A DNA stretch of 64,000 nt, taken from the IMG/VR virus record IMGVR_UViG_3300017778_003242, positions 15,284-79,283 of that record. The stretch is one strand, 5' to 3'. The position numbers were made by a program, and so were the translations under genes. The DNA comes from a virus (lineage: Duplodnaviria; Heunggongvirae; Uroviricota; Caudoviricetes). Below are positions 27,840-47,303 of the stretch, piece after piece. Each line of letters starts with the position of its first letter. Positions within the stretch are counted from its first letter, which is position 1. The notes below the pieces were generated by a model, which ran no database searches, had not been told where the DNA came from, and worked only from the letters and a program-made list of their open reading frames with translations.

Positions 27840-28367
27840 TCAAGCCCCGCGTCCGCGCTCCCAGTCGATCTGGGACTTCCCATCGACTTCCTGAACGCGC
27901 GCCGTCCAGCCGTTCTTGAATGTCGGCCAGTGCGGGAGCGTCTTCATGAATTCGAGGCGTTTGGCATTGTATTCAGCCAGTTTTTCCTTCGGCGCGTGGA
28001 ACACCGCGGCAACGGTTTTGGGGCCGATGACGCCATCCGGAGTGAGCCCGAGAACGGTCTGAAGGACGCGCACCGCGCGCCCCGGTCCGGAGTTATAGGC
28101 GAAGTCCACGACCGCGTAATCCCAGCCATGCTGGAGCTTGTCGCCCTTAACGGCCATCCAGTATTTGACATTGAAGATCGCCCGAGCCTGTTGGCGCGTG
28201 ATCATCTTGACGCTGTACGGCGCGGTGCCGGACGCGGCCAGATACTCGTTGAAGACCTTCTGCGTCACGCCAAGATTGGTCGCGCCGCCGGGGTCTTTCG
28301 GATTATCGACGTAGCCGCCTTCGTGCGCGAGCATACGTTCGAAGATGCGTTCGAAATTCGGCGTCAT
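27840..28367 (-). CDS. endolysin, glycoside hydrolase family 108 + peptidoglycan-binding domain
   Basis: EGGYVDNPKDPGGATNLGVT GH108 signature. C-terminal LGLTPDGVIGPKT PG_binding_3-like motif. Confidence 0.8.
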   Translation of the reverse strand: MTPNFERIFERMLAHEGGYVDNPKDPGGATNLGVTQKVFNEYLAASGTAPYSVKMITRQQARAIFNVKYWMAVKGDKLQHGWDYAVVDFAYNSGPGRAVRVLQTVLGLTPDGVIGPKTVAAVFHAPKEKLAEYNAKRLEFMKTLPHWPTFKNGWTARVQEVDGKSQIDWERGRGA

Positions 28368-28370: not shown

Positions 28371-30035
28371 TTACGCTCCCTTCTTGATCCCGGCATTGAC
28401 CGGGCCTTCCTTGGCGACTTCTTTCGCGACTTGGGCGTTCTTGTCCGCGAGCGCGAGCTGCGTGTCCTTGGTCTTGTCGGCGACCTTGAGCTGGCCCTCG
28501 GTCTGCGCGCCGATCTCTGCCATCTTCGGATTGTAGAACGCGCCGATCTGATCGGCCTTCTCTTTGAGAAGGTGGGCCAAATCCTCGTCCGTGTGGAAGT
28601 CTTCCGCGAGGATACCGCGGCGCTTCAGCTCGTTGATGAAGCCGACGCGCGAGATCGCGCGCTTGTCGTACGCGACTTGCAGCGTTTGCAGATCGACCAC
28701 GTCGCCACCTTCGAACGCGAAGTCGGTGTGGATGATGATCGAACCACCGTCGTTGCCGACGCCGCCCATCTGGGCCATGGCTTTGAAGCAGTTTTCAAGG
28801 ATGTCCTTGAATCCGAGCGCCATCCGCTGAAGGTCGGACGACGTGTTCTTTTCCTCGATAGAGCGTGACGTGGCCGTCTCGCGGTCTGGGCGCTTGCGCA
28901 GCAGCGACGCGCCGTAAAGACCCATCTGGTTTTCCAGATCGGCGAGGTTTTCCTTGGACGAGGTGAGGGCGAGGCCCTGATGCTCGACGTAGTAGTATTT
29001 GGAGTTCGGGTCTTCCAGCGTGAGCACGTTACGCGGGCCGATCGTGACGCTTCCCGCATCCTCCGGCGCGACGCCGGACGCGGCCAAGATCGGGAACGAC
29101 GCCACCGTCAAGGTGTTCATGTGGTCCGAATAGCGCTGATAGTGCAGCACGTTCATGTGGGCCAGATCGAGCAGGGGAGGCTTCGAAACCATGAAGCCGT
29201 CGCGGCGCGCGTAGAACGTGAAAATCGGAATGTAATCAAGGTCTGTGGGCTTGGCATCGACCTTTTTCCACGACTTGGCGGACGCGCCAGTCTTGCCCTC
29301 GATCTTCTTGTACATGCCGGTCTGGACGGAGCGCTTGCCCTCGTTATCAACGAACAGGGTCATCTCGCGGATGATCAGCTCTTCGACTTCGGCGAAGCCA
29401 TCACGCTTCGTGGTCATCTCGTACCAGCGGATGTGCGTCAGCACTTCGGCACCGTCTTGGCGCACGCTGTTGGCCGCGATGACATTCTCCGGATGGATGT
29501 GAACGAAGTAGGGGCGGATACCCTCTGCCTTCTCATCGGCCAGTGTGTACGTGCGGCTGGGGTCTTTGGCCGGAGTGTCCACGAGGATGTGGGTATAGCC
29601 CTTCGACACGCCGTCGCGGAAGACGCGCGCGGCGAATTGGTCGATGTGATTGCCTTCCAGATCGATGTCCTCGATCCAGCCGCCGGTCAGCAGCGTGTCC
29701 TTCTCCGCAGTCTCGCTCTTCTCTTCGCCGGACTTCTGGAGGACGCCGCGAATTTGCTCCGGGACATCGTCGCCGAATTGCAGCGCTTCGGTGAAGGGCT
29801 TACCCGACAGGGTCGCCACGGTCAGGTCGAAATAGTTGATCAGGATGGAGCGCTTCAGGCGTTCCTTGTAGTCTTCCGGATACTCGCGGCTGTGCTGCGG
29901 AAGGTAGCGAGTTCCGGCCAGACGCATGGCCTCGGTGCCGCCGAGCAGCGCGTTGATCAAGTCCCAGCGCTCATCCATGACCGCATGGAATTGGCCCGGC
30001 GTCGCCGGATTTTCCTTCTCGCGTTGGGAAGCCAT
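28371..30035 (-). CDS. portal protein
   Basis: 554 aa acidic protein immediately downstream of the large terminase. Confidence 0.65.
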   Translation of the reverse strand: MASQREKENPATPGQFHAVMDERWDLINALLGGTEAMRLAGTRYLPQHSREYPEDYKERLKRSILINYFDLTVATLSGKPFTEALQFGDDVPEQIRGVLQKSGEEKSETAEKDTLLTGGWIEDIDLEGNHIDQFAARVFRDGVSKGYTHILVDTPAKDPSRTYTLADEKAEGIRPYFVHIHPENVIAANSVRQDGAEVLTHIRWYEMTTKRDGFAEVEELIIREMTLFVDNEGKRSVQTGMYKKIEGKTGASAKSWKKVDAKPTDLDYIPIFTFYARRDGFMVSKPPLLDLAHMNVLHYQRYSDHMNTLTVASFPILAASGVAPEDAGSVTIGPRNVLTLEDPNSKYYYVEHQGLALTSSKENLADLENQMGLYGASLLRKRPDRETATSRSIEEKNTSSDLQRMALGFKDILENCFKAMAQMGGVGNDGGSIIIHTDFAFEGGDVVDLQTLQVAYDKRAISRVGFINELKRRGILAEDFHTDEDLAHLLKEKADQIGAFYNPKMAEIGAQTEGQLKVADKTKDTQLALADKNAQVAKEVAKEGPVNAGIKKGA

Positions 30036-30038: not shown

Positions 30039-31472
30039 TTATCCTCGCTGTCGTCCGGCGCGACGTGAAGCCCTCCGCAGGTAATAACGGAGTTCGTCGC
30101 CGATGTGATCCTCGCTCTTTGTATCAACATCATCCGGGTCTTTCAAGTCTCGCGGAAGCGTTGGGACCAAATCAATGAAGTGTGTGCATGTACTAAAGAT
30201 GAACAATCCGGGGCGTTCACGTGTTCCGTGTTCGCCCGGAATTGAGTTCAGAAATCGCTCGCGCGCGACTTGCCAGCCCATCTTCCGGCTGTTCGGACCC
30301 TTGTCCGCCATGTCGAATCGGAGATGGAACGGGTCGGCCCGGAGCGTATCGTAAATCGATCGCCCGTGGCTCTTGTCGAAGATGTTCACGTCAGCCGGGC
30401 CAGCCGTCACGCGACCGCGGACACCGGCCTCTTCCTCGCACGCGACCATGCACTTAGCGATCTCCAGAGGCGTGAGGTTCAGGCCCTCATCCTCTTGGCC
30501 GCTGGTAGAGTACCACTCGCCGATCCGGAAGCTATCGCCGGGCACGAGGCCACGGTATATGCCCGGCCCAACCTCGACGCAGTCGCCATTACTTTCCGCC
30601 CATAGGCCATACGATCCGGGCTTGGCACCGCCCCAGTCGTACGCGCGCCGGATCGTCCACGTGTTGGGGATATAGAAGGGCTTGACGACGTGGACGCCAG
30701 CGTTCCAGATGTCATCGAACATGCCGCCCGACACAGCATCCCAGTCACCGAACAGCCACGCCTTCAGCTTCTCTTGGTTGCCCGCCGCCGACTGCTTAAG
30801 CGTCTGCACATACCGCGGATCAGTCCGCAGTAGTATCTTGTTTTCAATAAGAAATCCGGGAATAGCGAGGCGGGGAGGGGACATCATCCCATCCTCTTCC
30901 CGCTCCTGCCAGACCTTGTACCGATGGCTGGGGAGCTTGAACCGGCGCTTGACCCAGTTCTTGCCGACGCCGTACGGGTTCGTGGTGGACCGAATGATGC
31001 GAGGCATGTTAATCGGACCGGCAGAACGGTTGCACGAGAACATGCTGAGATAGCCCTTGTTCGTGGGCCACGTCGTCAACTCTTCCCATCCGATGAAAGG
31101 CAATTCCTGACCGTGCCACGACCAATAGTCGTTCTCGTCAAAGAAGTGCGCGAAGGTCAGCATCTCGCCGCCGGGCCAGACCCACGTCTTCTCGGTCTTG
31201 TTATAGACCGCGTCCGGATAGATGCGCCCGAATTCGCGCTTCGACTTTTCGATGATGTCGTCAAGGTCGCCGCTCTCGCGACGGAAGATCACGCCGCGCC
31301 AGTGCGAGCCATACCCCTTGCCGGTGTGCTGGGCGAACGCGAACAACATCGACCACGTCTTGCCGGGGCCGCGCTCGCCTTCGAACAGGACTTCCTTGAT
31401 CTTGCTCGACTGAAGGAACAGCGTTTGTGAGCCCGGTTGGGGCATCACAGCATCAGCTACCATTACGGACAT
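30039..31472 (-). CDS. terminase large subunit
   Basis: FEGERGPGKTW Walker A region. C-terminal nuclease-domain acidic residues. 477 aa. Confidence 0.8.
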   Translation of the reverse strand: MSVMVADAVMPQPGSQTLFLQSSKIKEVLFEGERGPGKTWSMLFAFAQHTGKGYGSHWRGVIFRRESGDLDDIIEKSKREFGRIYPDAVYNKTEKTWVWPGGEMLTFAHFFDENDYWSWHGQELPFIGWEELTTWPTNKGYLSMFSCNRSAGPINMPRIIRSTTNPYGVGKNWVKRRFKLPSHRYKVWQEREEDGMMSPPRLAIPGFLIENKILLRTDPRYVQTLKQSAAGNQEKLKAWLFGDWDAVSGGMFDDIWNAGVHVVKPFYIPNTWTIRRAYDWGGAKPGSYGLWAESNGDCVEVGPGIYRGLVPGDSFRIGEWYSTSGQEDEGLNLTPLEIAKCMVACEEEAGVRGRVTAGPADVNIFDKSHGRSIYDTLRADPFHLRFDMADKGPNSRKMGWQVARERFLNSIPGEHGTRERPGLFIFSTCTHFIDLVPTLPRDLKDPDDVDTKSEDHIGDELRYYLRRASRRAGRQRG

Positions 31473-32098
31473 CAGGTCAGCCCCGCGAGATCGTCTTCCT
31501 CTTCATGGACCTCATGGAACTCCGCGTCAATAGGGGGAGTGCGGCCAGCCGCGTCGATGCGGTCCATCATGCCTTGCAGGCCTTCCGACTGGATAAGCCG
31601 GGTCTTGTCCGCCTGCGCGGCGAGAAGCTTCTCAAACTGGTCAGCCATGACTTCCTCCGGCAGATAGAGGGTCGTGCGGTTGTCCACCTTGACTTGTATT
31701 TGGTCACCGTACAGGTCAGGCCGGATGCGCTCCGCGAACTTCTTCAGCAGCGAATCGCTTTGGCTTTCCTCGTAGATGTACCGCGTGTCCCCGGTGTCGA
31801 GATCGATGTACGTCAGGGGCTTGCCCTCGAACATCTTGGGCACGCGGTTCTCGCCCATGCTTCGGGCATAGATGCGTTCCTCAACGACCGAGAAGCCGAC
31901 TTGCATGGCCCATTCGATCATCTCATTGAGCTGGGGGTCCGCCTTGCGGGCGAACGCCAGCGCTACCGGATGGATGCACGCGCGCTTGCACGCCCTGATC
32001 TCAACAGGTTCCTCACCCAGCGCTAGGAGTAGCGTGGGCAGTTTGTCCATCGTGAACTTCAGTTGTTCAGGGACGGGAAGATCAGGCAGGGTCATCAT
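31472..32098 (-). CDS. putative terminase small subunit
   Basis: 208 aa acidic protein directly upstream of the large terminase. Its stop and the next start share a base. Assigned from position only. Confidence 0.35.
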   Translation of the reverse strand: MMTLPDLPVPEQLKFTMDKLPTLLLALGEEPVEIRACKRACIHPVALAFARKADPQLNEMIEWAMQVGFSVVEERIYARSMGENRVPKMFEGKPLTYIDLDTGDTRYIYEESQSDSLLKKFAERIRPDLYGDQIQVKVDNRTTLYLPEEVMADQFEKLLAAQADKTRLIQSEGLQGMMDRIDAAGRTPPIDAEFHEVHEEEDDLAGLT

Positions 32099-32622: not shown

Positions 32623-32923
32623 AGTCTTCCGCTTCCTTCAGGGCTTTCACGCGACCGGCGAGGGCGGCGTTGATGTGATCGAACGGAGGCGAACGGAGCT
32701 TCCGAACATGGTCGAGCAAGATGTACCCGGTTTCCTGATGGAAGACAAGGTCCACCGGAGTATCGTGAAAATACCAGATCGCCGGGCTTGGATTGACATA
32801 CGGCTTGGCCGCATGATCCCTGAAACGATCAGCGAGCGGGCGCGAGTTCTGCGCCAGTATCATCCCCGCCATGAGCGGGGCGCACGCTTCCCGAATCATG
32901 TGGTGCGTCTGGAAGGGCATCAT
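32558..32923 (-). CDS. hypothetical protein
   Basis: 121 aa. ATGA-coupled to thyX. Its 3' end overlaps the next gene by 65 nt. Confidence 0.4.
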   Translation of the reverse strand: MMPFQTHHMIREACAPLMAGMILAQNSRPLADRFRDHAAKPYVNPSPAIWYFHDTPVDLVFHQETGYILLDHVRKLRSPPFDHINAALAGRVKALKEAEDYEILRRETGDAQLDAPEVPSA

Positions 32924-33768
32924 AGTTCACCTCGTTGTTCCATCTGGTTGCGCAGCGATTGCCAACCGACAAAGTTTGCATAGCGACCGTACTTGCCGAG
33001 CGCATTCACGCCATGCGCCATGGCCTGATGCTCGATAGGAGAGGCGTGGGCAGGCTTCATGACGATGAGCCTGTCATAGAGCGCCACGTCCTCGTCCACT
33101 GTGCTGGGCTTGCCCTCGTGCGTCATATAGCTGACGCGGGCGCAGCGGGCCGCGCTGATCTTCTGCTTGATCACGTCGCTGTATTCCTGTTCGCTCGCGC
33201 GCACGTACGGCAGGCGCCATTGGCCGGGCTCAAGGAAGTTGATGCGATCGTACCAGTACGTGTCGGTCATGGCTTCGCGCATCTTCACCGCGAGCGCCCT
33301 GATCTCAGGCTGTGCTTCCTTGTGGTCGCGGAGCTGGAAGAAGTTGTCCCACTCGGTCGCCGTCACGATGACGCTGATGTGGGCGTACGGTTCGAGCAAG
33401 CGGTTCGCCGCCTGCTTGTGGAGGCCGAGCGCCACCAACTTCTCGACGTGCCCAATGGCATCTTCCATGGACGCGCGCCATTCGAGCTTCGCCAGCTTGA
33501 TCTCTTCGGGCGTCAGCTCGACATCCGCCTGCATACCCGACTGGTTGCGGCCCCAGTGTACGAGCATCGCCGGGTCCATGCGGATGTCCTCGATCATCTT
33601 CTTGACCGGGATCGCGCGCGACGACGATGCGTTGCGCGAGAAGACGCGATGCGTCATGAACTCCGCATGGATCAACCGCGGGTAGCGGAGCTGTAGCGTC
33701 CATATGGGCGGGGCTCCGTTCGGCTCTTTGAGCTGCGAACAGAGAATTACTTTTGCAGAGATGGTCAA
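32920..33768 (-). CDS. thyX: flavin-dependent thymidylate synthase ThyX
   Basis: FMTHRVFSRNASSSRA matches the ThyX (R)HRx7S signature with Thr replacing the first Arg. DNFFQLRDHKEAQPEIR matches the ThyX HFxxLRxxxxAQxEIR region. Confidence 0.75.
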   Translation of the reverse strand: MTISAKVILCSQLKEPNGAPPIWTLQLRYPRLIHAEFMTHRVFSRNASSSRAIPVKKMIEDIRMDPAMLVHWGRNQSGMQADVELTPEEIKLAKLEWRASMEDAIGHVEKLVALGLHKQAANRLLEPYAHISVIVTATEWDNFFQLRDHKEAQPEIRALAVKMREAMTDTYWYDRINFLEPGQWRLPYVRASEQEYSDVIKQKISAARCARVSYMTHEGKPSTVDEDVALYDRLIVMKPAHASPIEHQAMAHGVNALGKYGRYANFVGWQSLRNQMEQRGEL

Positions 33769-35520: not shown

Positions 35521-36186
35521 TCACAATTTCCTCCGGAAAACGAACGACATGATGTCCTCGCGCCCGATGCGCGTCTCTGTGTCATCCTTCATCAGAAGTT
35601 CGAAACCCTCGCGCTTCATGAACGCCTCTATGCCAGCTTCGGTGAAGTACCAGATGTGTTCATCCGGGCGGAAGTGCTTCGACGCCAACGCGTGTTCCCG
35701 ATTGCGGAAGATCGGGATCGACATGGCGACCGACTTAGCCGACTTGATCGTCTGGTCAGGACGAAGGATGTGCTCGAACGAATCCCAGAAGCACATGCAG
35801 GACCAGTGCGGTTCATCGCCCGGTTGGTTTGGCACTGCGAACCGGCTCTCGTCCATGAGCCTTCCGATCATGACCGGGTTCACGTCGAAGCCGAAAACAT
35901 AATCCTCGTCTGTGGGTAGTTCATTGGACAACGCGCGCATGAACGCGCCATCGCCGGGGCCTATGTCGATGAAGTTCCAGATGCGCTTGCCTTGCTCTGC
36001 TTGGTCCGCCGCGTACAGGGCCAACGAGCAGCGGTGCTGGTTCAAGCGATCCGCTATTTTCGTGTTGGCCATCTCTTCGTACTTCTGGACGTACGCCGCA
36101 TTATACGGCGCGTCCGAAGGGTCACACGGGTAAAACCCGAAGCCCATGTCAGCATTCCAGAAAAGCAGATCAGACGGGGAGAGCAT
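35521..36186 (-). CDS. SAM-dependent methyltransferase (class I Rossmann)
   Basis: IWNFIDIGPGDGAFM motif I (hh(D/E)hGxGxG). 221 aa. Confidence 0.6.
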   Translation of the reverse strand: MLSPSDLLFWNADMGFGFYPCDPSDAPYNAAYVQKYEEMANTKIADRLNQHRCSLALYAADQAEQGKRIWNFIDIGPGDGAFMRALSNELPTDEDYVFGFDVNPVMIGRLMDESRFAVPNQPGDEPHWSCMCFWDSFEHILRPDQTIKSAKSVAMSIPIFRNREHALASKHFRPDEHIWYFTEAGIEAFMKREGFELLMKDDTETRIGREDIMSFVFRRKL

Positions 36187-37096
36187 GGTTCACCTTGTTA
36201 ACGAAGTCCAAGAGATGGAGCGTGAAATTCGAGATGGTTTTATCGCAGGCGCATTCCCCTGTCGAGTGCCTACAGAAATTATCTGGGATGGCGTTGACAA
36301 CTTGCGAAAGGTCCATGCGCCGGTCGAAGATGCGCTCCGGATTGTCGAGCCTTCCACGCGCGCCCCAGATCGCCAGCAGCGGACGTTTCGCCGCCACGGC
36401 CATTGGCATCGCGAAGCCGGGGCCGGACACGACGCCGGACGAATGGCGGACCAGCTCGATCATCTCCGGGAAGCTGAGTTCTCCCCGCTGATAGTTGATG
36501 TCGCAATGTGGTATAGGGCCAACGCATTCTTCGCCGTCGCCGATGCGGGCGATGCCCACCGTCAGGATGCCGGAGGCCTTGAGCAGCGCTACAGCATCAT
36601 GAATGTATCCGGGCAGGCAGTTGCGCGCCGACGTGCCGAAGCCCTCACGGACCACGACAGGGCGAATGACCACATACTTCCGACGCGAGTTGATCAGCCA
36701 TTTGATATACGAATCGACTCCCTGAAAGTCCGGAGGCGGCAGATCAAACTGGTACAGGTGGTGTACCGGAAAGGCACGCCCGATCTGTTCCGTTACATTG
36801 GCCGGATCGTTCGGATCGTATGCCATGAAGATGGGCTCCATCTGGTGCTCGTCATCAGGCTTCACACGCGGAGCGCCACGCCAGTCGCGCGTCTCGCCCC
36901 AGTCGCGGATGTTCTTCTTCACATAGGGAAGCGATGTCTGGGCGCGCACAAGGCGTATCCCGCGGATGTCCCCGAACAATTGAGGGAAGCCCGTCATCAG
37001 AGAAACCTGATAGCGCATCGCCAAGTCTTTGATGAACGGGCGCGCGTAGAGATTGTCGCCAATCCCGACCATGGCGCGGATGTATATCTTGTGCAT
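36170..37096 (-). CDS. glycosyltransferase family 9-like (heptosyltransferase fold) protein
   Basis: N-terminal IRAMVGIGDNLYARPFIKDL (GT9 GDxxxxxP motif). C-terminal VVSGPGFAMPMAVAAKRPLLAIWG resembles GT9 [22 protein letters not shown]. Confidence 0.55.
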   Translation of the reverse strand: MHKIYIRAMVGIGDNLYARPFIKDLAMRYQVSLMTGFPQLFGDIRGIRLVRAQTSLPYVKKNIRDWGETRDWRGAPRVKPDDEHQMEPIFMAYDPNDPANVTEQIGRAFPVHHLYQFDLPPPDFQGVDSYIKWLINSRRKYVVIRPVVVREGFGTSARNCLPGYIHDAVALLKASGILTVGIARIGDGEECVGPIPHCDINYQRGELSFPEMIELVRHSSGVVSGPGFAMPMAVAAKRPLLAIWGARGRLDNPERIFDRRMDLSQVVNAIPDNFCRHSTGECACDKTISNFTLHLLDFVNKVNHALPV

Positions 37097-37494
37097 CAGA
37101 AATTGATCTCGACGCTGACGAGGGCGAGATAGAAGCCCTTGTACCCGGCCCTGTTGGGGGTGATCGGTTTGATCTCGAACTCGACGATGATGTCCCGCTC
37201 ACGGAAGATCATATCCTTCGACCGATTGCGGACTTCGTTCAACTGGCATTCGCGCAGCAGTTCGTACGGCTCGTTCGTTTTGACTTCCGGGCGCTTGCGC
37301 GTGCTAATCTTCGTGGTAGTCTTGCCCGCGAGGTGGGGCGTCTTGGCGATGTATTCGTCCATCTCCGGGAATCCCTTCATGTACTCCGCGTCGATGCAGA
37401 CCATGTAGTCCTTCCTGCCGCCGTCGTCGATGTAGCTGTGCGGCTCATAGACGTGAACGAACTTGGCGAGGCCAGCGGGGACAAACATCTTCAT
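37096..37494 (-). CDS. DUF2815-family putative ssDNA-binding protein
   Basis: MKMFVPAGLAKFVHVYEPHSYIDDGGRKDY resembles the DUF2815 N-terminus. ATGA-coupled to the HNH gene. Confidence 0.45.
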   Translation of the reverse strand: MKMFVPAGLAKFVHVYEPHSYIDDGGRKDYMVCIDAEYMKGFPEMDEYIAKTPHLAGKTTTKISTRKRPEVKTNEPYELLRECQLNEVRNRSKDMIFRERDIIVEFEIKPITPNRAGYKGFYLALVSVEINF

Positions 37495-37967
37495 AGGTCG
37501 TGCTCCGGAAAGGGAATGTCCGTCAGGTATTGCAACGGACGTGCCACGGCGTCTTCCTGACAATACCGATTGCTCTTGGCCACGTTATCCCGTTCGGTAA
37601 GTATCTGAAGGTTCCATGGGACATGGAGGCCAGAGCAATCTGTCCCATTAAGAGGAATGATATGATCGACGCGGTGAAGCTCGCCCGTCTCGCGCGTGAG
37701 ATAATCGGCATCAGCGTACCTGCTTTCGATCTCTGCAATCATCGACGCAGATAGCCACCTTGGGACGCGGTTGCGCGCGGAGGCGCGTTTCATGGCATCC
37801 TTTGCTGCCCTTCCTCTTGGCCTTGCGCTCTTCGTTTCTCTGTCGCATTCGACGCAGGTTTTCGATCTCGTGTACCGCGGCGCTATGTGACCACGTGAAC
37901 AGGGTTCCGCTGTGAAATAGAGCGGAAGGCCCTTCTTCACTGCTATAGCGCGGGTTCTCTTCCTCAT
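37491..37967 (-). CDS. HNH homing-type endonuclease
   Basis: HRVDHIIPLNG...NLQILTERDNVAKSN HNH motif plus an N-terminal Cys/His zinc-finger (CSRGH...CVEC). Confidence 0.7.
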   Translation of the reverse strand: MRKRTRAIAVKKGLPLYFTAEPCSRGHIAPRYTRSKTCVECDRETKSARPRGRAAKDAMKRASARNRVPRWLSASMIAEIESRYADADYLTRETGELHRVDHIIPLNGTDCSGLHVPWNLQILTERDNVAKSNRYCQEDAVARPLQYLTDIPFPEHDL

Positions 37968-38190
37968 ACTCGATGATCTCGTTAACCAGTTCCCGACCTT
38001 GGCGCGTCAACGTCCAGCTCTCGCCTTGCCACGAACGATAGCACTTGGCCGCTCCTACGTGGAACAGGTACATAAGGCGACCGTGGGGCGGGGCAACAAG
38101 GTGATTGCGGCGTGGATAGCACTTCAGCTCGCGACCGCGAATCCAGAACAGAGCCGCGAGAGTTTCGTCGTGCAGCTCCATCCGGATCAC
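37711..38190 (-). CDS. hypothetical protein overlapping the HNH gene
   Basis: 159-aa ORF. The N-terminal 74 aa (38190-37968) are non-overlapping. The remaining 257 nt overlap the HNH ORF in another frame, so the true extent is uncertain. Confidence 0.3.
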   Translation of the reverse strand: MIRMELHDETLAALFWIRGRELKCYPRRNHLVAPPHGRLMYLFHVGAAKCYRSWQGESWTLTRQGRELVNEIIEYEEENPRYSSEEGPSALFHSGTLFTWSHSAAVHEIENLRRMRQRNEERKAKRKGSKGCHETRLRAQPRPKVAICVDDCRDRKQVR

Positions 38191-38315
38191 GTGCTGACTT
38201 TCTCAACCAGTTCTGCCCCCGCGCCAACCGCGCACGACACCGACGACAGCGTCGCCCATACGAGAAACGAGAACATGATGACCAGCACCATGCCTTTGAC
38301 GATCGCGTCCATCAT
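38187..38315 (-). CDS. small membrane protein (42 aa)
   Basis: MMDAIVKGMVLVIMFSFLVWATL TM. ATGA overlaps on both sides. Confidence 0.35.
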   Translation of the reverse strand: MMDAIVKGMVLVIMFSFLVWATLSSVSCAVGAGAELVEKVST

Positions 38316-38734
38316 GAGCACTTCCTCCACAAGACACTGGCCGAACCGTCGTGCGGTTGGCCGTTCCAATCGAACCGTTTGATATTCGCATGAAGCGTGC
38401 CATCCGGCAACACCTCATTCGCGATGATCGGGAATTCTTCCGCCGTCGTGTTGTAGATCGCGATGATCTCCCAGACGCGACCGCCGTGTGTACACCAGAG
38501 CGAGCCGATGTTGAACGCCTTGAACGCGTCCATGCCCACGACTTCTACCTGTTCGACCAGATGGCTTTTCTTGGAGAGCGATTGGAGGACGCCGTTGAGA
38601 TCGTAATTGCCGCGCTCGCCACGCTGGTTCTCACCAGTGTAGTAATACACCTTGCCTTCGATGCTGACCTCGTGAGTGATCTTGACGAGAACGCCTTGGC
38701 TGTTCTTCCAGACCTGACCGGCTTCCAGTTTCAT
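38312..38734 (-). CDS. hypothetical protein (140 aa)
   Basis: Purine-rich SD before ATG 38734. No motif. Confidence 0.4.
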   Translation of the reverse strand: MKLEAGQVWKNSQGVLVKITHEVSIEGKVYYYTGENQRGERGNYDLNGVLQSLSKKSHLVEQVEVVGMDAFKAFNIGSLWCTHGGRVWEIIAIYNTTAEEFPIIANEVLPDGTLHANIKRFDWNGQPHDGSASVLWRKCS

Positions 38735-38897
38735 CTGCGTCTCTTCTCTTTCGGTGGATCGTAACGGCGTGGATCGTCCTGCCAGCGGTAACTTCGTTCC
38801 CGCTGGCACGACGGAGGTATCTAGCTGTCTTCGACTTCGAACTCGCCTACGGCTCGTTCGAAGTCAAGCTCCCGCACGCCGTTATACTTCATAACTT

Positions 38898-39746
38898 TCA
38901 TCGTGCCAACATTTTTGTTATGCGCGCGACATCCTTCGACGGCGGCACTTCCGATGCCATCAGCGGGACGTAAGGCGTGCCGGGTTTGATCCACGAAGAG
39001 AGGAAGCCGGGGACGAAGCGGTCCGGGTAGATCGCGACAGTCGGCGTCTGGAAGTGATTGCCGAGAACCGTCATGCCGCTGATGATGCCCGTCAGCGACT
39101 TGGCGTTTCGGATGATCGCGGCGACCGCGGGTAGCGTCGTCTCGCTGATCAGGTTGTCCGCATCGACGGGGCCGATGGCTTTGAAGAAGTCCTTGTCCCA
39201 TCCTGCGCCGATGATCAGAGGGCGCTCGCCCGTCTGGTCCCCCAGCTCGTGGATGAGGTGACGCCAGAAGCCGGGACCGCGATCAGGGAACCAGTGTTTA
39301 TTCACGCCTTCGGAGCTGGCGTAGACCACATGCCTGTCGCTGAACCGGGACGGTATGGCGGGCGTCTTGATCTCGATATCGAGGTTCAGCTCGTACTCCG
39401 GCATCCAGTTGCGCAGATGTTCGCCGCGATCGATGACCGCGTTGGGCCACATCACGACATCGACGCCGGGCTTGCGGCACGAGAAGCCTGTCTCGCGGAT
39501 GCCGGGGTTCGTCCCGAAGTCGAACTCTTCAGCGGCATCGACGCAGTCCACCATGCCGGGCCACGAGAGCGCACGCTTCAGCTCGTGCGCCTTGACGCAC
39601 AAAGTCACGTGCTCGATGTTGTGCTTCTCCCTGAAGCTCTCAAGCTTGCAGAGAGCCCAATAGGTATCGCCGACGCCGGGCGGAACGCCGATGCGGATGC
39701 GCTTGGGAAGCGAGCGAACAACGCGGATGTTGTGCGCCTTGATCAT
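38898..39746 (-). CDS. glycosyltransferase family 9-like protein (second copy)
   Basis: IRIGVPPGVGDTYWALCKL N-terminus. LISETTLPAVAAIIRNAKSLTGIISGMTVLGNHFQTPTVAIY closely matches the GT9 C-terminal consensus. Confidence 0.6.
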   Translation of the reverse strand: MIKAHNIRVVRSLPKRIRIGVPPGVGDTYWALCKLESFREKHNIEHVTLCVKAHELKRALSWPGMVDCVDAAEEFDFGTNPGIRETGFSCRKPGVDVVMWPNAVIDRGEHLRNWMPEYELNLDIEIKTPAIPSRFSDRHVVYASSEGVNKHWFPDRGPGFWRHLIHELGDQTGERPLIIGAGWDKDFFKAIGPVDADNLISETTLPAVAAIIRNAKSLTGIISGMTVLGNHFQTPTVAIYPDRFVPGFLSSWIKPGTPYVPLMASEVPPSKDVARITKMLAR

Positions 39747-40992: not shown

Positions 40993-41886
40993 CTACTTGA
41001 CGTTGATGAAGGGCACAGCTTGGCCCGGCACCATCGTCGTGGGCAGTTTGCCGTCCCACTTCTCAGCGAGCGTCAGCTCGACGAGCTTGGGCGACGAGGC
41101 GATAGCTTCCGAGCGCGCCCGGATCGCCGCCGCTTCAGCATCGCCGCGGAGGCGGGTCTGCTTGGCATCAGCTTCGGCTTGGATCACGAGCATGTCCGCG
41201 TCGATCTGCGCCGTCTGCTTCTGTTGCTCGCGCTTCTGCACTTCGACTTGTGCCATCATGCGCGCTTCGACCGCGTTCTCGTAGGCGTCAGAGAACGAGA
41301 TGTCCTGAACCTGCACAGCCGACACGACGACCGGGTATCCCTTCAGCAGTTCCTTCAGCGCGATCGCGACATCAGCGTTGAACTTCGACCGTTGCTGGAT
41401 GACCGTCACCGCGTCGTAGCCGCCGAACACGTTCTTGACCGCCTCGACCGTCTTGGGGACGACGACCGTGGTGCGGAAGCGCTCGCGCGATCCGTATGTC
41501 TGGTAGATGTCCGAGATCGTCGCGTCGTCAGCCGGGATGGACCACGCCACGTTGAGCGCGATCTCCGCGGGCTGTTGGTCGCGCGAGTACGAGTTCATGC
41601 GGCTGTCGCCATCCTCTTTCGAGTATTGCCACGCAATCGGTTGCTCGCGCACGTCCATGATGCGGAAGTCGTCAACGAACGGCACTTTCAGGTTCAGGCC
41701 GGGCTTGGTGATGCCGACGAGCGCGCCGGTGCGAGTGTGGACCGCGCGTTCACCTTCGCCGACAGTGTAGAACGAATTGCAACCGGCGATCGTCAGCGTG
41801 AGGACGGTGACGACAGAGATCACTGCATTGCGGACGAGGCCGACGATGCGCTTGAATTTGAGGGCTTCTTCTTCTTCGTAGGTCAT
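40993..41886 (-). CDS. SPFH/band-7 (prohibitin/HflC-like) membrane protein
   Basis: N-terminal TM then an SPFH core (YTVGEGERAVHTRTGAL...) and a C-terminal coiled coil (QKREQQKQTAQIDAD...). AAGGAA SD before ATG 41886. Confidence 0.65.
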   Translation of the reverse strand: MTYEEEEALKFKRIVGLVRNAVISVVTVLTLTIAGCNSFYTVGEGERAVHTRTGALVGITKPGLNLKVPFVDDFRIMDVREQPIAWQYSKEDGDSRMNSYSRDQQPAEIALNVAWSIPADDATISDIYQTYGSRERFRTTVVVPKTVEAVKNVFGGYDAVTVIQQRSKFNADVAIALKELLKGYPVVVSAVQVQDISFSDAYENAVEARMMAQVEVQKREQQKQTAQIDADMLVIQAEADAKQTRLRGDAEAAAIRARSEAIASSPKLVELTLAEKWDGKLPTTMVPGQAVPFINVK

Positions 41887-42074
41887 TTTGGTTCCTTGAG
41901 CGTTACTGATGAGCAAGGTAGAGCAAGTGCCGTGCCACGCGCCTTGCACGCAGGGCATTCGTAGTCGTGAGGGTTAACGGCGACGCAGATCGCGTCGGGG
42001 TGTGTACGGTGAACCGGAGGCCCACCGTACATTCCGCTTTCCATGAAGGCGCGGATGTCTTCCCGACTGATCAT
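41883..42074 (-). CDS. small Cys-rich protein (64 aa)
   Basis: HDYECPACKARG zinc-ribbon-like motif. ATGA-coupled to the SPFH gene. Confidence 0.3.
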   Translation of the reverse strand: MISREDIRAFMESGMYGGPPVHRTHPDAICVAVNPHDYECPACKARGTALALPCSSVTLKEPK

Positions 42075-43446: not shown

Positions 43447-43594
43447 TTGGTCATTCCTTGCTAGAGCCCCAGTGCGGAGCGGTCAGACGTGTTATGCAGG
43501 CAGCGTGCCACATCGTCAACAACTATTTTACTGCATTAGATAAAAAGATGGCCGGACACGAATGCCCGGCCATGTTCTTACTGAGTTCGGTAAA

Positions 43595-43671
43595 TGGTAC
43601 GAAGGGAAAGAATCGAACTTTCGACCTCGCGGTTATCAACCGCGCGCTCTTCCCAACTGAGCTACCCTCGC
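43595..43671 (-). tRNA. tRNA-Ile (anticodon GAU)
   Basis: Reverse complement reads GCGAGGGTAGCTCAGTTGGGAAGAGCGCGCGGTTGATAACCGCGAGGTCGAAAGTTCGATTCTTTCCCTTCGTACCA. D-arm GCTC/GAGC, anticodon stem CGCGG/CCGCG with loop TTGATAA, T-arm GAAAG-TTCGATT-CTTTC, encoded CCA. Confidence 0.7.
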
Positions 43672-44182
43672 AAACGGTTAGTCGCGAGACATGGTAATTC
43701 GCTTCGGACCCTTGGACTTGCGGGCGAGCGCGGCCAGAGGCTTCGCCGCGGGTTTCTGGGCGACGGCTTTCTTCTGACGGGACTTCTTCAGCATGGACAT
43801 GGGCAATACCCCTTGAAATGATGGCCCGCCCGTACGCCGGAGCGCAGAGGGACGGGGCGTTACCTTTACGTTGTCCCATGTCCATGGACGGAAGTCAAGA
43901 CTATCGGGCTGTGGGCCGATAAGGGCTGTTATCGGGCGATGGGCCTTACCCCCTGCGGAGGCTAGAAGCCTTTTAACCCCCGTAAGGGATAAATTTCTAA
44001 AATTTTTTATGAAATCAAGGGGCTAAGAGGCGGGGCTATAATATAAGTACCCCCGGTCTAATTTCCTACCCTCATACGAGCGTATAATGACTGGCGTAGT
44101 AAGGTTAATGACCCATGTTGGGGCATTACCCCCTGTTAGGGTTAACAAATCCCTAAGCGGTAAGGTTAATCGATCGTTAAGG

Positions 44183-44300
44183 TTAATAAATAATAAAAAT
44201 AATAAATAATTAATTATTTATTATTTATTAATGTTACATTACATACTGTTAATGTTACATGCTATGTATATACTATGTGTTAAGGTTAATAACATACTAA
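44183..44300. repeat. nearly pure A/T low-complexity tract with palindrome AATAAATAATTAATTATTTATT
   Basis: Roughly 120 bp almost devoid of G/C in a 60% GC genome. Contains a perfect 22-bp AT palindrome at 44201-44222 and flanking AAGGTTAAT motifs. Confidence 0.6.
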
Positions 44301-44654
44301 TGCACACACCATGCTGTATAGGTTAATTGTTATTAACCATGCTCTATATAAGGGGGCTTAAATAGAGGGGGCTTAGCAGTGGGTTAACCTTAACAGAAAG
44401 CCACATTCTGTTAAGGTTAATAATTTGCGAATTTCTGGTATGGTTAATAAAGACCCTCAAAAAATTAACCAAGAAAGTAAGGTTAACAAATCATGTTGAA
44501 AAATTAACCCTAACAATGGATTAATTTAGTACCTCACAATTAGATTAAATTCATTTGAAATAACTGCCAATATCCCGCTATTCCGATAAAGGTAAAGAAA
44601 CCCATCATCCCTAACAGTCGCTTAATAGTGATCATGAAATTCCCCTTGTGTGGT

Positions 44655-44686
44655 AAGCCCCCTCTTTAGGAGGGGGCTTAGCCTTT
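44655..44686 (-). terminator. terminator downstream of minus-strand gene 44686-44934
   Basis: AAGCCCCCTC-TTT-AGGAGGGGGCTT hairpin. Confidence 0.5.
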
Positions 44687-44934
44687 CATTTACCGATGCC
44701 GAACTGGGCGGCGAGATTGCCTAACGCTTGGTTAAACCAGTAGATGAATTCCGCTTCCGTCTTGATCGTGCGGCCCTTCATCTGGGCGAGGCGTTGGGCG
44801 CGTTTCAGAACGTACAGGATAGGCTCTTTACCCTTGTAACCGAGCCCTGCGGCGATCTCGTCAATCGCGGCTTTCGTGGCGCTTGCGCCCGGCTGAGTGG
44901 CGTCGTTCAGTTTGGTCCAGTAAGAGGTGGTCAT
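44686..44934 (-). CDS. hypothetical protein (82 aa), divergently transcribed from cassette 1
   Basis: ACGGAGA SD before ATG 44934. Shares the palindromic operator with the rightward genes. Confidence 0.45.
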   Translation of the reverse strand: MTTSYWTKLNDATQPGASATKAAIDEIAAGLGYKGKEPILYVLKRAQRLAQMKGRTIKTEAEFIYWFNQALGNLAAQFGIGK

Positions 44935-45007
44935 TTGCTGTCTCCGTTTTGATGAGTTAGTTATGCCATAGGCTTGCAGGGAATGCAAGCGCATAATGCA
45001 GAATTCT

Positions 45008-45027
45008 ACATTACAAATTTGTAATGT
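45008..45027. promoter_or_regulatory. operator palindrome ACATTACAAATTTGTAATGT (cassette 1, divergent)
   Basis: Perfect 20-bp inverted repeat followed by AATGCA(A)AA..GCTATTGCATATCC and SD AACGGAG. Confidence 0.55.
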
Positions 45028-45110
45028 TCAAAATGCAGAAAATGCAAAAAAGGCTATTGCATATCCGGCCAACCTATGCGAGAAAGGGTCATCAACAACG
45101 GAGACACCAA

Positions 45111-45293
45111 ATGCAAATCAACTACCGCCAGACAGACGAAGAAATCCGCCGCGAATGGGCGGGCGTCGAGCGCCGCGCGCCGATCACGGCAGAAACGGCT
45201 CCCAAAGCCGTCGTGAAGCGCGACCGCTTCGCTTGCGTGGTTGTGGCCGTGTTCGTGGCCGTCGCGATCCTCGGCGTTGTGGTGACGTTCTAA
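45111..45293 (+). CDS. small membrane protein (60 aa)
   Basis: ATG 45111 after CAACAACGGAGAC SD. C-terminal TM (FACVVVAVFVAVAILGVVV). Confidence 0.45.
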   Translation: MQINYRQTDEEIRREWAGVERRAPITAETAPKAVVKRDRFACVVVAVFVAVAILGVVVTF

Positions 45294-45454
45294 TGGACAC
45301 GGAAAACAGCCTTTACCTGCATGGCCGCAAGCCTACGCTGGGCGAGATCATGCGACAGCTCAAAATCGTCGAGAAAGTCTGCCAAGAGATTCGCGACGAA
45401 GAGACTTCCTTTCAACCCCGCGACCAATTCGCGGAATTGCTTTTCGAGGATTGA
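45293..45454 (+). CDS. small protein (53 aa)
   Basis: TAATG-coupled. MDTENSLYLHGRKPTLGEIMRQ... Confidence 0.35.
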   Translation: MDTENSLYLHGRKPTLGEIMRQLKIVEKVCQEIRDEETSFQPRDQFAELLFED

Positions 45455-45458
45455 TCAC

Positions 45459-45779
45459 ATGCCCGGAGATATGGAACTGATCGCCAGCGACGCGCGCGGA
45501 ATTTACATTCCGCAGCATGTGGCCGAAGCTTGCACGCTGGAGCCTATCAGGAAGACGCCGCAAAGCATCGCCCGGCTAGCCGTCAACGTGGCGACATGCC
45601 TAGAAGGGCCGGACGCCGAAAACTACTGGGAAGCATGGAGCGAGATTCTAGACCTAGCCTGCATCCGAGTCGGACGCGCGCGGTGGTCGCTCTATCAGGA
45701 CGGCGATTGCTGGGCAATTCGAATGTGTGCCCGCGCGCGGAAAGAAGCGGCCCACGCGTTTGGGTGGGATGTGGATTGA
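45459..45779 (+). CDS. hypothetical protein (106 aa)
   Basis: GAGGA SD before ATG 45459. Confidence 0.4.
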   Translation: MPGDMELIASDARGIYIPQHVAEACTLEPIRKTPQSIARLAVNVATCLEGPDAENYWEAWSEILDLACIRVGRARWSLYQDGDCWAIRMCARARKEAAHAFGWDVD

Positions 45780-45787
45780 AGCAAGAA

Positions 45788-45823
45788 CCATGCCAACCGC
45801 GAGGTCGGCATGGTTAATTTTTC
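45788..45823 (+). terminator. rho-independent terminator
   Basis: CCATGCCAACCGCGAGGTCGGCATGG hairpin + TTAATTTTTC. Confidence 0.6.
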
Positions 45824-45833
45824 TTCTCGGTTT

Positions 45834-45862
45834 GTTAACCTTAACAACCTATTAAGGTTAAC
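45834..45862. promoter_or_regulatory. TTAA-N7-TTAAG hairpin element (GTTAACCTTAACAACCTATTAAGGTTAAC), copy 1
   Basis: 11-bp inverted repeat conserved after several small genes. Matches the CtrA-box-like spacing TTAA-N7-TTAA. Confidence 0.45.
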
Positions 45863-45938
45863 AAATCATTAACGCGGAAAAATAGGTCGTCAATCCATTA
45901 TATCACAAAAATCCGACCGGGTCAAGAGGAAAAATGCA

Positions 45939-45958
45939 ACATTACAAATTTGTAATGT
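45939..45958 (+). promoter_or_regulatory. operator palindrome ACATTACAAATTTGTAATGT (cassette 2)
   Basis: Identical 20-bp palindrome. Downstream TTGCAT -35-like element and AACGGAG SD. Confidence 0.55.
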
Positions 45959-46035
45959 AGCAGAAAAATGCAAAAAGCCTATTGCATATCCTGATCAATG
46001 TGCTATCTCTATTGCATCAACAACGGAGCGACCAA

Positions 46036-46134
46036 ATGGAAACGGTTCTGAAAATCGCCTTTTTCTTCTTCCCTTCGGAAGAACTCAGCAACCGGATTTG
46101 CGCGGTGCGCTTTCACAAAAAATGGAGCCGCTAA
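46036..46134 (+). CDS. tiny protein (32 aa)
   Basis: ATG 46036 after the cassette-2 SD. Hydrophobic FFFF stretch. Below the ORF-track cutoff. Confidence 0.25.
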   Translation: METVLKIAFFFFPSEELSNRICAVRFHKKWSR

Positions 46135-46135
46135 C

Positions 46136-46396
46136 ATGAAACTGGGACCGAAAGACAAGGTTATTGCGAAGGGCCATTCGCTCGTGGTTTTCGAATGCAC
46201 GGACATGGGTCCGGACGATGGCAATCGTTATTTTGTCTGCTTCTCCAATGAGAACGGCAAACACTCGTCCAGCCTCGGCTGCGCCTTGTCCATGGGCTTC
46301 ATGGACGACAACGGAAGCGGCCAAGGCGATTTCAAGTTTACGCCTGTCCAGATGATTTTCCTCGAACGCACGGCGGACTCGCTCCCCGACTATTAG
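46136..46396 (+). CDS. hypothetical protein (86 aa)
   Basis: ORF. No motif. Confidence 0.4.
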   Translation: MKLGPKDKVIAKGHSLVVFECTDMGPDDGNRYFVCFSNENGKHSSSLGCALSMGFMDDNGSGQGDFKFTPVQMIFLERTADSLPDY

Positions 46397-46412
46397 TCAA
46401 GCGAATAGTGCA

Positions 46413-46432
46413 ACATTACAAATTTGTAATGT
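46413..46432 (+). promoter_or_regulatory. operator palindrome (cassette 3) with TTGACC-N17-CATAAA promoter
   Basis: GCAACATTACAAATTTGTAATGTTGC, then TTGACCTATGCAGTGAGCTATGGCATAAAGGGTCATCAACAACGGAG. Confidence 0.55.
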
Positions 46433-46509
46433 TGCACTTTTTTCGAATTATCCAGTTGACCTATGCAGTGAGCTATGGCATAAAGGGTCATCAACAACGG
46501 AGAACGTCA

Positions 46510-46713
46510 ATGACCAAGAAACACTTCATCGCCATCGCGAAGCGCATGGCCGACCACCGCTTCAACCTCTCGAAAATCTCGGACAAGGCGACGCGTGACG
46601 CAAGCCTGAACGTCCTCGACGACACGATTCGCGATCTGGCGATTACTTTCGGAGACGTTAACCCGAACTTCGATTTCCGCCGCTTCGCCGACGCCTGCGG
46701 TTTGCCCAACTAG
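46510..46713 (+). CDS. hypothetical protein (67 aa)
   Basis: ATG 46510 after AACGGAGAAC. Confidence 0.45.
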   Translation: MTKKHFIAIAKRMADHRFNLSKISDKATRDASLNVLDDTIRDLAITFGDVNPNFDFRRFADACGLPN

Positions 46714-46726
46714 GGAAAGGAAGAAT

Positions 46727-46762
46727 TAACCCTGCGCCCCCACCGCGCAGGGTTAATTTTTG
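46727..46762 (+). terminator. rho-independent terminator
   Basis: TTAACCCTGCGCCCCCACCGCGCAGGGTTAATTTTT. Confidence 0.6.
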
Positions 46763-46772
46763 GCCTCGCGGC

Positions 46773-46801
46773 GTTAACCTTAACAGCCTATTAAGGTTAA
46801 C
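46773..46801. promoter_or_regulatory. TTAA-N7-TTAAG hairpin element, copy 2
   Basis: GTTAACCTTAACAGCCTATTAAGGTTAAC. Confidence 0.45.
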
Positions 46802-46877
46802 AAACCATTAACGCGGAAAAAATGCTTTTAGCCTCAGAATATCATATAAAGCGAGCCGGGTCAATAAGAAAAATGCA

Positions 46878-46897
46878 ACATTACAAATTTGTAATGT
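46878..46897 (+). promoter_or_regulatory. operator palindrome (cassette 4) with TTGACG-N17-CATAAA promoter
   Basis: Near-identical duplicate of cassette 3. Confidence 0.55.
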
Positions 46898-46974
46898 AGC
46901 ACTTTTTTCGAATTATCCTGTTGACGTATGCAGAGAGCTATGGCATAAAGGGTCATCAACAACGGAGAACTGCA

Positions 46975-47241
46975 ATGACAATGTTTTCGGGCCAAGTTTC
47001 GGTTTCAGTGTTCCAATGCCTGACCATCGCGTCCGGGCTGGATATGTACCGGAAATTCAAAATGATGCCGAACCGCAACTATACGCCGAAAGCCATGATG
47101 GACGCGGCGTCGCGGATCACGGGCCAGAAATTCAAGGCTCGCGATTACGAAGGCGCTGCAATCGCCCTGCGGGCGCTGGCGGAAAAGACCAAGAACGAAA
47201 TCCACGCTGGCCAGCATGAAGGGAACTCGATCACCCCTTAA
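46975..47241 (+). CDS. hypothetical protein (88 aa)
   Basis: ATG 46975 after AACGGAGAAC. N-terminal hydrophobic segment. Confidence 0.45.
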   Translation: MTMFSGQVSVSVFQCLTIASGLDMYRKFKMMPNRNYTPKAMMDAASRITGQKFKARDYEGAAIALRALAEKTKNEIHAGQHEGNSITP

Positions 47242-47271
47242 GCCCGGCCCCGGCTCGGGGACGGGAGTTGA

Positions 47272-47303
47272 CCATGGCCCGAAAGGGCCATGGTTAATTT
47301 TTT
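47272..47303 (+). terminator. rho-independent terminator
   Basis: CCATGGCCCGAAAGGGCCATGG + TTAATTTTTT. Confidence 0.6.

Follow-up and report, generated by a model that had tools for sequence, protein, structure and literature searches.

Glycosyltransferases (GTs) of CAZy family GT9 include the heptosyltransferases WaaC and WaaF, and WaaC uses Asp13, at the end of strand β1, as its catalytic aspartate and Lys192 and Asp261 as ADP-heptose-binding residues, Asp261 binding the heptose. The superfamilies to which GT9 and GT42 enzymes belong both have protein-glycosylating members, TibC/Aah and Maf, and in chlorovirus PBCV-1 the GT-GT-methyltransferase protein A064R builds a methyl-capped capsid glycan. 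Mycobacteriophages bear glycans on capsid and tail-tube subunits, according to the summary in PMC12619734, and a GT9 gene paired with an S-adenosylmethionine (SAM)-dependent methyltransferase gene has been noted in Pseudomonas aeruginosa prophages, where DNA glycosylation or O-antigen change was speculated upon without experiments (PMC10449497). Here we analyse a 64,000-nt stretch of Caudoviricetes DNA (hereafter the window; positions 15,284 to 79,283 of IMG/VR record IMGVR_UViG_3300017778_003242) and describe four of its genes, two for GT9-fold glycosyltransferases (GT1 and GT2), one for a class I SAM-dependent methyltransferase (MTase) and one for a GT42/Cst-II-like putative transferase, which we tentatively read, with a confidence somewhat short of even, as a dispersed, late-acting phage glycan-assembly cassette whose acceptor would be virion proteins.

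The first-pass annotation of this DNA, made from its letters alone, had assigned GT1 and GT2 to GT9, which holds for the fold but not for Pfam membership. At sequence level, both proteins fall short of the curated thresholds for CAZy GT9/Pfam PF01075: GT1 returned no Pfam match at all, PF01075 included, and GT2 reached 13.1 bits with PF01075, whose cutoff is 22 (E 0.062), and 15.5 bits with TIGR02193 of NCBIfam, whose cutoff is 185. Because direct Pfam and NCBIfam assignment gave sub-threshold matches only, we used homologue families and structure prediction. Each protein has a clear homologue family with all members from phage-like metagenomic contigs (A1 for GT1 and A2 for GT2, labelled GT9a and GT9b as domains), and PF01075 was matched at E<=0.01 by 3 of 21 A1 homologues (best 8.7e-7) and by 26 of 34 A2 homologues (best 1.2e-13). 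The best PDB sequences for the GT family profiles were WaaF at 1.4e-4 and WaaC at 6.6e-3, and structure prediction gave a GT-B fold of two Rossmann domains closest to solved GT9 enzymes. An invariant Gly-Asp lies at the β1/α1 junction of the AlphaFold2 (AF2) secondary structure in each family, and alignment together with this secondary structure points to D14 of GT1/A1 and D27 of GT2/A2 as putative catalytic aspartates, in the place of Asp13 of WaaC. GT1 has the N-terminal GDxxxxxP motif reported for both proteins by the first-pass annotation (GDNLYARP), whereas GT2, with GDTYWALC, lacks it, leaving the GD with its invariant Asp as the element common to both. GT1 and GT2 thus have the GT9 fold and are of GT9 descent, although they lie outside the curated family definitions.

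The same annotation had proposed checking the fold and the donor-binding residues, and the GT-B GT9 fold was confirmed and a putative catalytic Asp located as above. The position aligned with WaaC Asp261, or with the DSG of WaaF, is Ser in A2 and Gly in A1 in profile alignments. ADP-heptose can therefore not be assumed as the donor, and a donor sugar other than ADP-heptose, suggested by these substitutions, may be used, which counts against the ADP-heptose example in the scheme proposed below. The basic residue R158 of A1 aligns with the KR-WP motif of WaaF. GT1 ends in a Cys/His cluster (C275, H277, C282 and C284); whether it might be a TibC-type iron finger was probed with a profile of the last 90 residues, for which the PDB gave no relevant match. 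A comparison of the A1 and A2 profiles matched just 39 columns with 17% probability, indicating distinct subfamilies rather than recent duplicates. Among 1.8 billion representatives, the A1 profile reached 547 clusters at E<=1e-30 and only 956 at E<=1e-3 without reaching canonical GT9, suggesting that A1 is a discrete, sizeable family that has drifted from canonical GT9.

The claim that a class I SAM methyltransferase is paired with GT1 was borne out by Methyltransf_23 and phrog_6564 matches. MTase is 35% identical to orf13 of Pseudomonas phage D3, lacks the (D/N/S)PP(Y/F/W) motif, and has Pfam matches limited to the small-molecule type families Methyltransf_23/12/25, with the C5-methylase family absent among them, so that neither the N6A/N4C motif nor the C5 family membership of DNA methyltransferases is found. 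The protein is acidic (pI 5.0), and a PDB search with it found no relative; net charge and pI, near neutral, were uninformative as an indicator of DNA binding. The motif and family matches suggest that MTase is probably a sugar O-methyltransferase, of the small-molecule rather than the DNA type.

A fourth component, overlooked in the first-pass annotation along with the prior presence of the family in D3 and many other phages, was found in the window by tblastn from ORF10 of phage PAJU2 at 6e-12. Its match to Pfam MptE-like (E 5e-5) scored 23.6 bits, below the cutoff of 34.6, and the phrog_4603-family profile matched Campylobacter Cst-II (GT42) at 4e-6 over ~130 positions, in an alignment that takes in the motifs GPSL and LLG(F/Y)D, pointing to a putative CMP-ulosonic-acid transferase. 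In D3, PAJU2, Psp6 and Eowyn, a phrog_4603 protein annotated "alpha-2,3-sialyltransferase" is encoded just upstream of the GT9-like/MTase pair, and the depositors' label of PAJU2 ORF10 is 'structural protein'.

A tblastn search with GT1 matched 29 isolated phages, including Pseudomonas phages D3 (orf12), PAJU2, PMG1, PP9W2, phi1 and Psp6 and, beyond these, Enterobacter phage Mulvp2, Klebsiella jumbo phage Eowyn and Synechococcus phage BUCT-ZZ01. In every region examined, the gene following the GT1 relative was a homologue of MTase (orf13 in D3), and a GT9-like gene paired with a Methyltransf_23 gene was also present on about 200 IMG/VR contigs. Purpose-built hidden Markov models (HMMs) were run over the window together with 107 fetched loci, 108 sequences in all (L numbers denote loci; P numbers below denote protein cluster representatives). 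The methyltransferase gene adjoins the GT9-like gene in nearly all of ~95 loci, following A1-type genes in nearly all loci long enough to show it but preceding A2-type genes, which makes it an obligate partner of the GT9-like gene, and most loci have the GT42-like gene 0-2.4 kb upstream of the GT9-like one. In the window, GT1 is directly followed by the overlapping MTase gene (17-nt overlap) and the three characteristic PHROG families are all represented (Table 1), but the GT42-like gene, expected within ~2.5 kb upstream of the GT9-like gene, is displaced to the end of the tail-fibre genes, before the spanin gene and ~26 kb from GT1/MTase. The window therefore holds a split, rearranged copy of the cassette with two GT9 subfamilies.

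Several loci have the genes contiguous, in the order GT42-GT9b-GT9a-MT in L041 and GT9a-GT9b-MT in L067 and L072, or fused. GT42-GT9a fusions occur in 8 cluster representatives, one 1214-aa protein has the order GT42-GT9a-GT9a-GT9b (P0062), and further fusions are GT9a-GT9a-GT9b (P0068) and GT9b-GT9a (P0181). An N-terminal region resembling, by eye, a class I methyltransferase precedes GT9a in P0077, P0097, P0156 and P0168, and a region that is LicD-like by eye is fused to GT9a in P0079. Since these fusions tie the families functionally, the four window genes would be parts of a single multi-step pathway for assembling and methylating an oligosaccharide. In related cassettes, sulfotransferases, FkbM-type methyltransferases, dehydrogenases and epimerases are found in addition. 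Among the individual cases are an FkbM-type Methyltransf_21 gene (L011 4619-5296), a radical SAM gene with an NAD-dependent epimerase/dehydratase gene near a related cassette (L110 10398-12880), and Sulfotransfer_3, transketolase/E1-like and zinc-dependent alcohol dehydrogenase (Zn-ADH) genes among the neighbouring proteins. A third, very divergent GT9-like paralogue (~254 aa, 'NGIGDW', weak WaaF match) directly precedes MTase-GT9b in six A2-type lineages (L095, at 7103-7867, L011, L096, L098, L099 and L101), the window having no copy. L102, L104 and L106 encode proteins of 800-960 aa with GT9b embedded in them, and the metagenomic protein P0088 (1032 aa) fuses an A1-type domain to a canonical GT9 domain with an apparent intein-like insert, seen by eye.

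Some phage records already annotate GT1 relatives as "glycosyltransferase family 9", and BFVD labels many uncultured-phage proteins GT9, RfaF or Aah/TibC, so that a GT9 fold in a phage is not new in itself. Neither the cassette as a unit nor its fusions or placement seem to have been described before; the literature searched on phage GT9 enzymes, heptosylation and Gram-negative virion glycosylation offered speculation only and no experiment on the cassette. A tblastn search with GT2 gave no match in phage records, isolated phages thus showing no A2-type GT9, and the A2 family was found in 1 of 185,579 species genomes, indicating that it is rarely prophage-borne.

To survey placement, GTs were dereplicated at 60% identity and their neighbours annotated, leaving 18 placeable lineages. 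Nine of these have the cassette inside or beside virion genes. In D3-type phages, including PAJU2, it lies seamlessly between the head-tail adaptor/closure and tail-completion genes with overlapping stops and starts; in Psp6 it follows the capsid gene and precedes the connector, and in Mulvp2 it separates capsid and tail tube. Metagenomic loci place it between portal/collagen-like genes and the connector with 4-7 nt overlaps (L009), between Gp10-like and SU10 adaptor genes (L011), directly after the major head protein (L084), after tail protein J (L041), before a tail fibre (L065) and after a capsid-like gene (L105-L107 type), and the T4-like cyanophage has it after the neck gene gp14. The commonest PHROG families in 136 neighbouring proteins were portal, major head, major tail, neck and TerL. 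Placement just upstream of terminase accounts for five lineages (the window, L007, L014, L015 and L111), and placement beside ribonucleotide reductase (RNR), glutaredoxin, C5-methylase or DNA polymerase genes for four (L059, L067, L109 and L110). Overall, the cassette is mobile between unrelated phages and sits predominantly in late operons. In D3, the stretch from head closure to tail completion resembles a hot spot for insertions. There, orf11 (7184-7684, in L002), encoding a protein with KilA-N and ORF11CD3 domains, precedes the cassette with short intergenic gaps, and the D3 record likens orf10 and orf14 to the LESB58 prophage genes PLES_25451 and PLES_25491 and orf12 and orf13 only to PAJU2. 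In L009, a collagen-repeat protein encoded next to the portal (5140-6018) is a candidate target.

Because the pair is mobile and sits elsewhere in most other lineages, the local neighbours in the window say little. This bears on the first-pass annotation, which had placed the GTs inside a DNA-metabolism block and given that location weight. ThyX and a phrog_1035 HNH endonuclease do lie nearby, the latter as annotated, but it is the plus strand that carries, at 0.5-5.6 kb and 59-60.5 kb, the genes for two helicases, dNMP kinase, RNR and deoxyribonucleotidase, whereas the GT genes belong to a minus-strand terminase-structural array. Given that in other lineages the pair is mostly among head, neck and tail genes, with few copies beside RNR or DNA polymerase, the association with a DNA-metabolism block is weak and non-conserved, and the weight put on it is not supported. 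Searches of Pfam, PHROG, NCBIfam and the PDB returned nothing for the DUF2815 SSB-like protein named in the same block (37096-37494/37563).

DNA hypermodification, in which the GTs would put sugars on a modified base and so evade restriction or CRISPR, draws on the same neighbourhoods. The L059, L067, L109 and L110 cassettes lie beside RNR, glutaredoxin, C5 DNA methylase, DNA polymerase or dCMP deaminase genes, three lineages (the window, L007 and BUCT-ZZ01) encode ThyX within a few kb of it, DNA is one acceptor that phages as diverse as these all share, and 5-hydroxymethylcytosine (5hmC) can receive heptose or Kdo from phage GT-B enzymes (bioRxiv 10.1101/2023.12.21.572611). However, the cassette comes with no base-activating enzyme (hydroxymethylase) and no DNA-type methylase. 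Since the head genes of the window are 40-48% identical to those of phage M6, M6/YuA-type thymidine hypermodification genes were sought in the window, and none was found. ThyX and HNH are common residents ahead of terminase. We consider a DNA acceptor very unlikely; rather than the DNA-modification system hoped for at first, the locus is a widespread, experimentally tractable cassette.

In the window, a minus-strand run of eight co-directional genes extends from ~39.7 kb down to 32.9 kb, in which overlaps of 4, 1 and 17 nt, with ATGA and TGATG junctions, chain HNH to the 132-aa open reading frame (ORF), GT1 and MTase, and the GT2 start codon contains the stop of an upstream ORF. The minus-strand array with the GT genes reaches the TerS, TerL, portal, head and tail genes without a convincing terminator; a promoter and terminator scan did not rise above chance level and showed no terminator excess between the GT genes and TerS/TerL. 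Since the genes stand in a co-directional array running into terminase, portal, head and tail genes, the glycan chain would probably be made late.

Taking these observations together, we tentatively propose that the cassette proteins would act as an assembly line of soluble cytoplasmic enzymes; no signal peptide or membrane anchor was noticed in them when the sequences were read by eye. No recognised sugar-nucleotide synthesis genes lie near the cassette, so that host nucleotide sugars would have to be used. The GT42-like enzyme would take a CMP-activated ulosonic acid such as CMP-Kdo from the host, and the two GT9-like enzymes an ADP- or NDP-sugar, for example ADP-heptose, the invariant N-terminal Asp serving as general base. 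One after another, the GTs would build a short oligosaccharide that the SAM methyltransferase would then cap by O-methylation, and the acceptor would be one or more virion proteins, resulting in a glycan coat on the particle. We infer the donor identities, the order of action, sugar O-methylation and the time of expression in this scheme, and the acceptor with the least certainty of all. A virion acceptor is supported by translational coupling of the cassette to head, neck and tail genes in many lineages, by its presence in lytic-type phages, and by the 'structural protein' label of the PAJU2 GT42-like protein. The protein-glycosylating members of the two enzyme superfamilies, TibC/Aah and Maf, and the precedents of mycobacteriophages and PBCV-1, whose own particles are glycosylated, point the same way.

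Several observations weigh against virion proteins as the acceptor. Four of the 18 placed lineages have the cassette beside nucleotide-metabolism or replication genes, and in five, the window included, it precedes terminase instead of lying among structural genes. Clustering the neighbours across 28 lineages revealed no acceptor protein and no non-enzyme gene that travels with the cassette, returning antisense shadow ORFs, ordinary head genes and a further GT9-like paralogue only. The major capsid protein of the window aligns end to end with that of M6, in which tblastn detected no GT1 relative, and has no extra Ser/Thr-rich tail. The best-studied GT9 and GT42 enzymes act on lipopolysaccharide (LPS) and lipooligosaccharide (LOS). 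We know of no demonstrated virion glycosylation for phages of Gram-negative hosts, and no such precedent was found in the literature searched.

The LPS activity of these relatives leads to the alternative that the enzymes remodel the host envelope, extending or altering at the inner membrane a lipid-linked glycan such as the LPS/LOS inner core (Kdo-Hep-type) or another carrier-linked glycan and thereby the receptor, for superinfection exclusion or for keeping progeny off debris. The nearest solved structures are the LPS heptosyltransferases WaaF and WaaC together with Cst-II, which sialylates LOS; most Gram-negative hosts have CMP-Kdo and ADP-heptose as their two inner-core donors, and D3 is a serotype-converting phage. 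In D3, a KilA-N regulator gene precedes the pair and the intergenic gaps are short, giving it a moron-like look, and envelope modification has already been suggested without a test (PMC10449497). By contrast, translational coupling to late structural genes, which are silent in a prophage, is seen in most lineages, and the cassette occurs in lytic-type phages (Eowyn, the T4-like cyanophage and the YuA/M6-like phage of the window), A2 being rarely prophage-borne. Serotype conversion by D3 maps to iap, wzy-beta and oac instead, and LPS made late would be too slow to replace surface LPS within a lytic cycle. LPS remodelling, as raised in the first-pass annotation, thus fits the cellular relatives, which act on LPS/LOS cores, but fits poorly with a late operon in lytic-type phages, and we regard both this target and the purposes named for it as unlikely.

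Another acceptor altogether, either a host protein (pilin, flagellin or an autotransporter, in the manner of Maf or TibC) or a small molecule or nucleotide, for instance in counter-defence, seems distinctly improbable. No specific evidence points to it, the C-terminal Cys cluster of GT1 shows no sequence link to TibC, hosts ranging from Pseudomonas to cyanobacteria offer no obvious common protein target, and late co-expression speaks against host takeover.

The preferred reading, a methylated glycan on virion proteins, can be generalised: it is possible, though we think it rather doubtful, that many tailed phages of Gram-negative and cyanobacterial hosts coat their particles with a methyl-capped, LPS-inner-core-like oligosaccharide of ulosonic acid and heptose-type sugars, assembled in the cytoplasm from CMP- and ADP-sugars of the host by means of a portable GT42-like/GT9-like/MTase cassette. 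If so, no virion glycosylation system would have been described earlier for phages of Gram-negative hosts, and GT9 would gain a new branch directed at proteins. Phages of a widespread class, including D3 and therapy-relevant Pseudomonas, Klebsiella and Enterobacter phages, would then bear an overlooked sugar coat that could affect immune recognition, stability, adsorption and the pharmacology of phage therapy. Were the acceptor LPS or DNA, the cassette would represent new receptor-masking or anti-restriction chemistry drawn from LPS-core enzyme families. In either case, the comparison turns an isolated oddity into a defined target, with a fixed enzyme set, fusions, hundreds of family clusters and cultivable phages.

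Table 1 Cassette genes and other features of the window
Feature	Position	Strand	Evidence or remark
GT42/Cst-II-like (MptE-like, DUF115-type) putative transferase, 227 aa	9012..9695	-	phrog_4603 6e-28; Pfam MptE-like 5e-5
MTase, class I SAM-dependent methyltransferase, 221 aa	35521..36186	-	Methyltransf_23 9e-12; phrog_6564 7e-43
GT1, GT9-fold glycosyltransferase, family A1 (phrog_6804), 308 aa	36170..37096	-	phrog_6804 3e-51; putative catalytic Asp14 in GIGDNLYARP
GT2, GT9-fold glycosyltransferase, family A2, 282 aa	38898..39746	-	putative catalytic Asp27 in PPGVGDTYW
132-aa ORF	37096-37494	-	no family or PDB match
HNH/endonuclease VII-like gene	37491-37967	-	phrog_1035 1e-17
ORF	38312-38809	-	no family match
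Band_7/HflK-HflC-like protein	40993-41958	-	just upstream of GT2; phrog_200 'lipoprotein', 1.4e-54
Several small ORFs and one 322-aa ORF	between MTase and ThyX	-	
ThyX	32920-33768	-	
TerS	31472-32098	-	
TerL	30039-31472	-	
Portal	28371-30035	-	head, tail and lysis genes continue on the same strand
GH108-type endolysin	27840-28367		between portal and head genes
Rz-like spanin	8270-8815		beyond tail-fibre genes, ~19 kb from endolysin
tRNA-Ile(gat)	43595-43671	-	
Strong hairpin terminator	43573-43548	-	
Strong hairpin terminator	44654-44680	+	
HslV-family peptidase homologue	62081-62527	+	among early genes; phrog_1040, 1e-31

The HNH gene and the 132-aa ORF stand outside the conserved cassette and are context only. 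The 132-aa ORF, translationally coupled between HNH and GT1, is kept only in the close relatives of the window, and its identity drops to 62% on an IMG/VR contig that agrees with the window at 99-100% in the GT genes, indicating local mosaicism. A megablast of the GT block against 50,697 phage records gave no match. The ThyX of the window carries THRVFSRNASSSR, a variant of the canonical ThyX motif, which begins RHR, and the same variant is found in the ThyX of the T4-like cyanophage BUCT-ZZ01, where the GT9-like/MTase pair sits 2.5 kb upstream. The minus-strand late array is parted from the plus-strand replication genes by a stretch of low GC (43548-50000; 0.47-0.52 against ~0.59 elsewhere) with few long ORFs, bounded by the tRNA-Ile(gat) gene and the hairpin terminators, which may be an early/regulatory region or a foreign insert. 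The lysis genes, GH108-type endolysin and Rz-like spanin, are scattered.

Compared with known systems, the window GTs share with T4 alpha/beta-GT and the 5hmC-directed GT-A/GT-B enzymes (Pyle et al.) that such GT-B enzymes are phage-encoded, but they show no specific structural similarity to phage DNA GTs, belong to another GT family and lack a partner making 5hmC or 5-hydroxymethyluracil (5hmU). Relative to WaaC and WaaF, they are ~13-15% identical and shorter (282-308 versus 320-350 aa), with Ser or Gly at the Asp261 equivalent and scores below the PF01075 threshold. Compared with the autotransporter heptosyltransferases TibC/Aah (BAHT, GT9), the Cys cluster of GT1 gives no sequence match to TibC, there is no sign of the dodecamer features, and NCBIfam scores are marginal. 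The phrog_4603 family has the GPSL and LLG(F/Y)D motifs of Cst-II and also matches Pfam MptE-like, but its proteins are much shorter (150-230 aa) than Cst-II and the Maf/DUF115 flagellin GTs and fall below the Pfam threshold. The mycobacteriophage glycan systems and PBCV-1 A064R offer a likeness in function and gene or domain architecture, namely virus-encoded cytoplasmic GTs with a methyltransferase for a putative capped glycan, whereas they use other GT families with no homology shown; on this analogy, the window enzymes may work in a comparable way. The closest counterpart is the D3 orf7/orf12/orf13 type (PAJU2, PMG1, Psp6, Mulvp2 and Eowyn), where three of the four window genes have direct homologues (GT1 31-32% and MTase 29-37% identical; GT42-like tblastn 1e-8 to 6e-12) and the overlapping order of GT followed by methyltransferase is the same. 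In the D3 type these genes are contiguous inside the head-tail module, whereas in the window they are split between 9.0-9.7, 35.5-37.1 and 38.9-39.7 kb, with an extra A2 gene.

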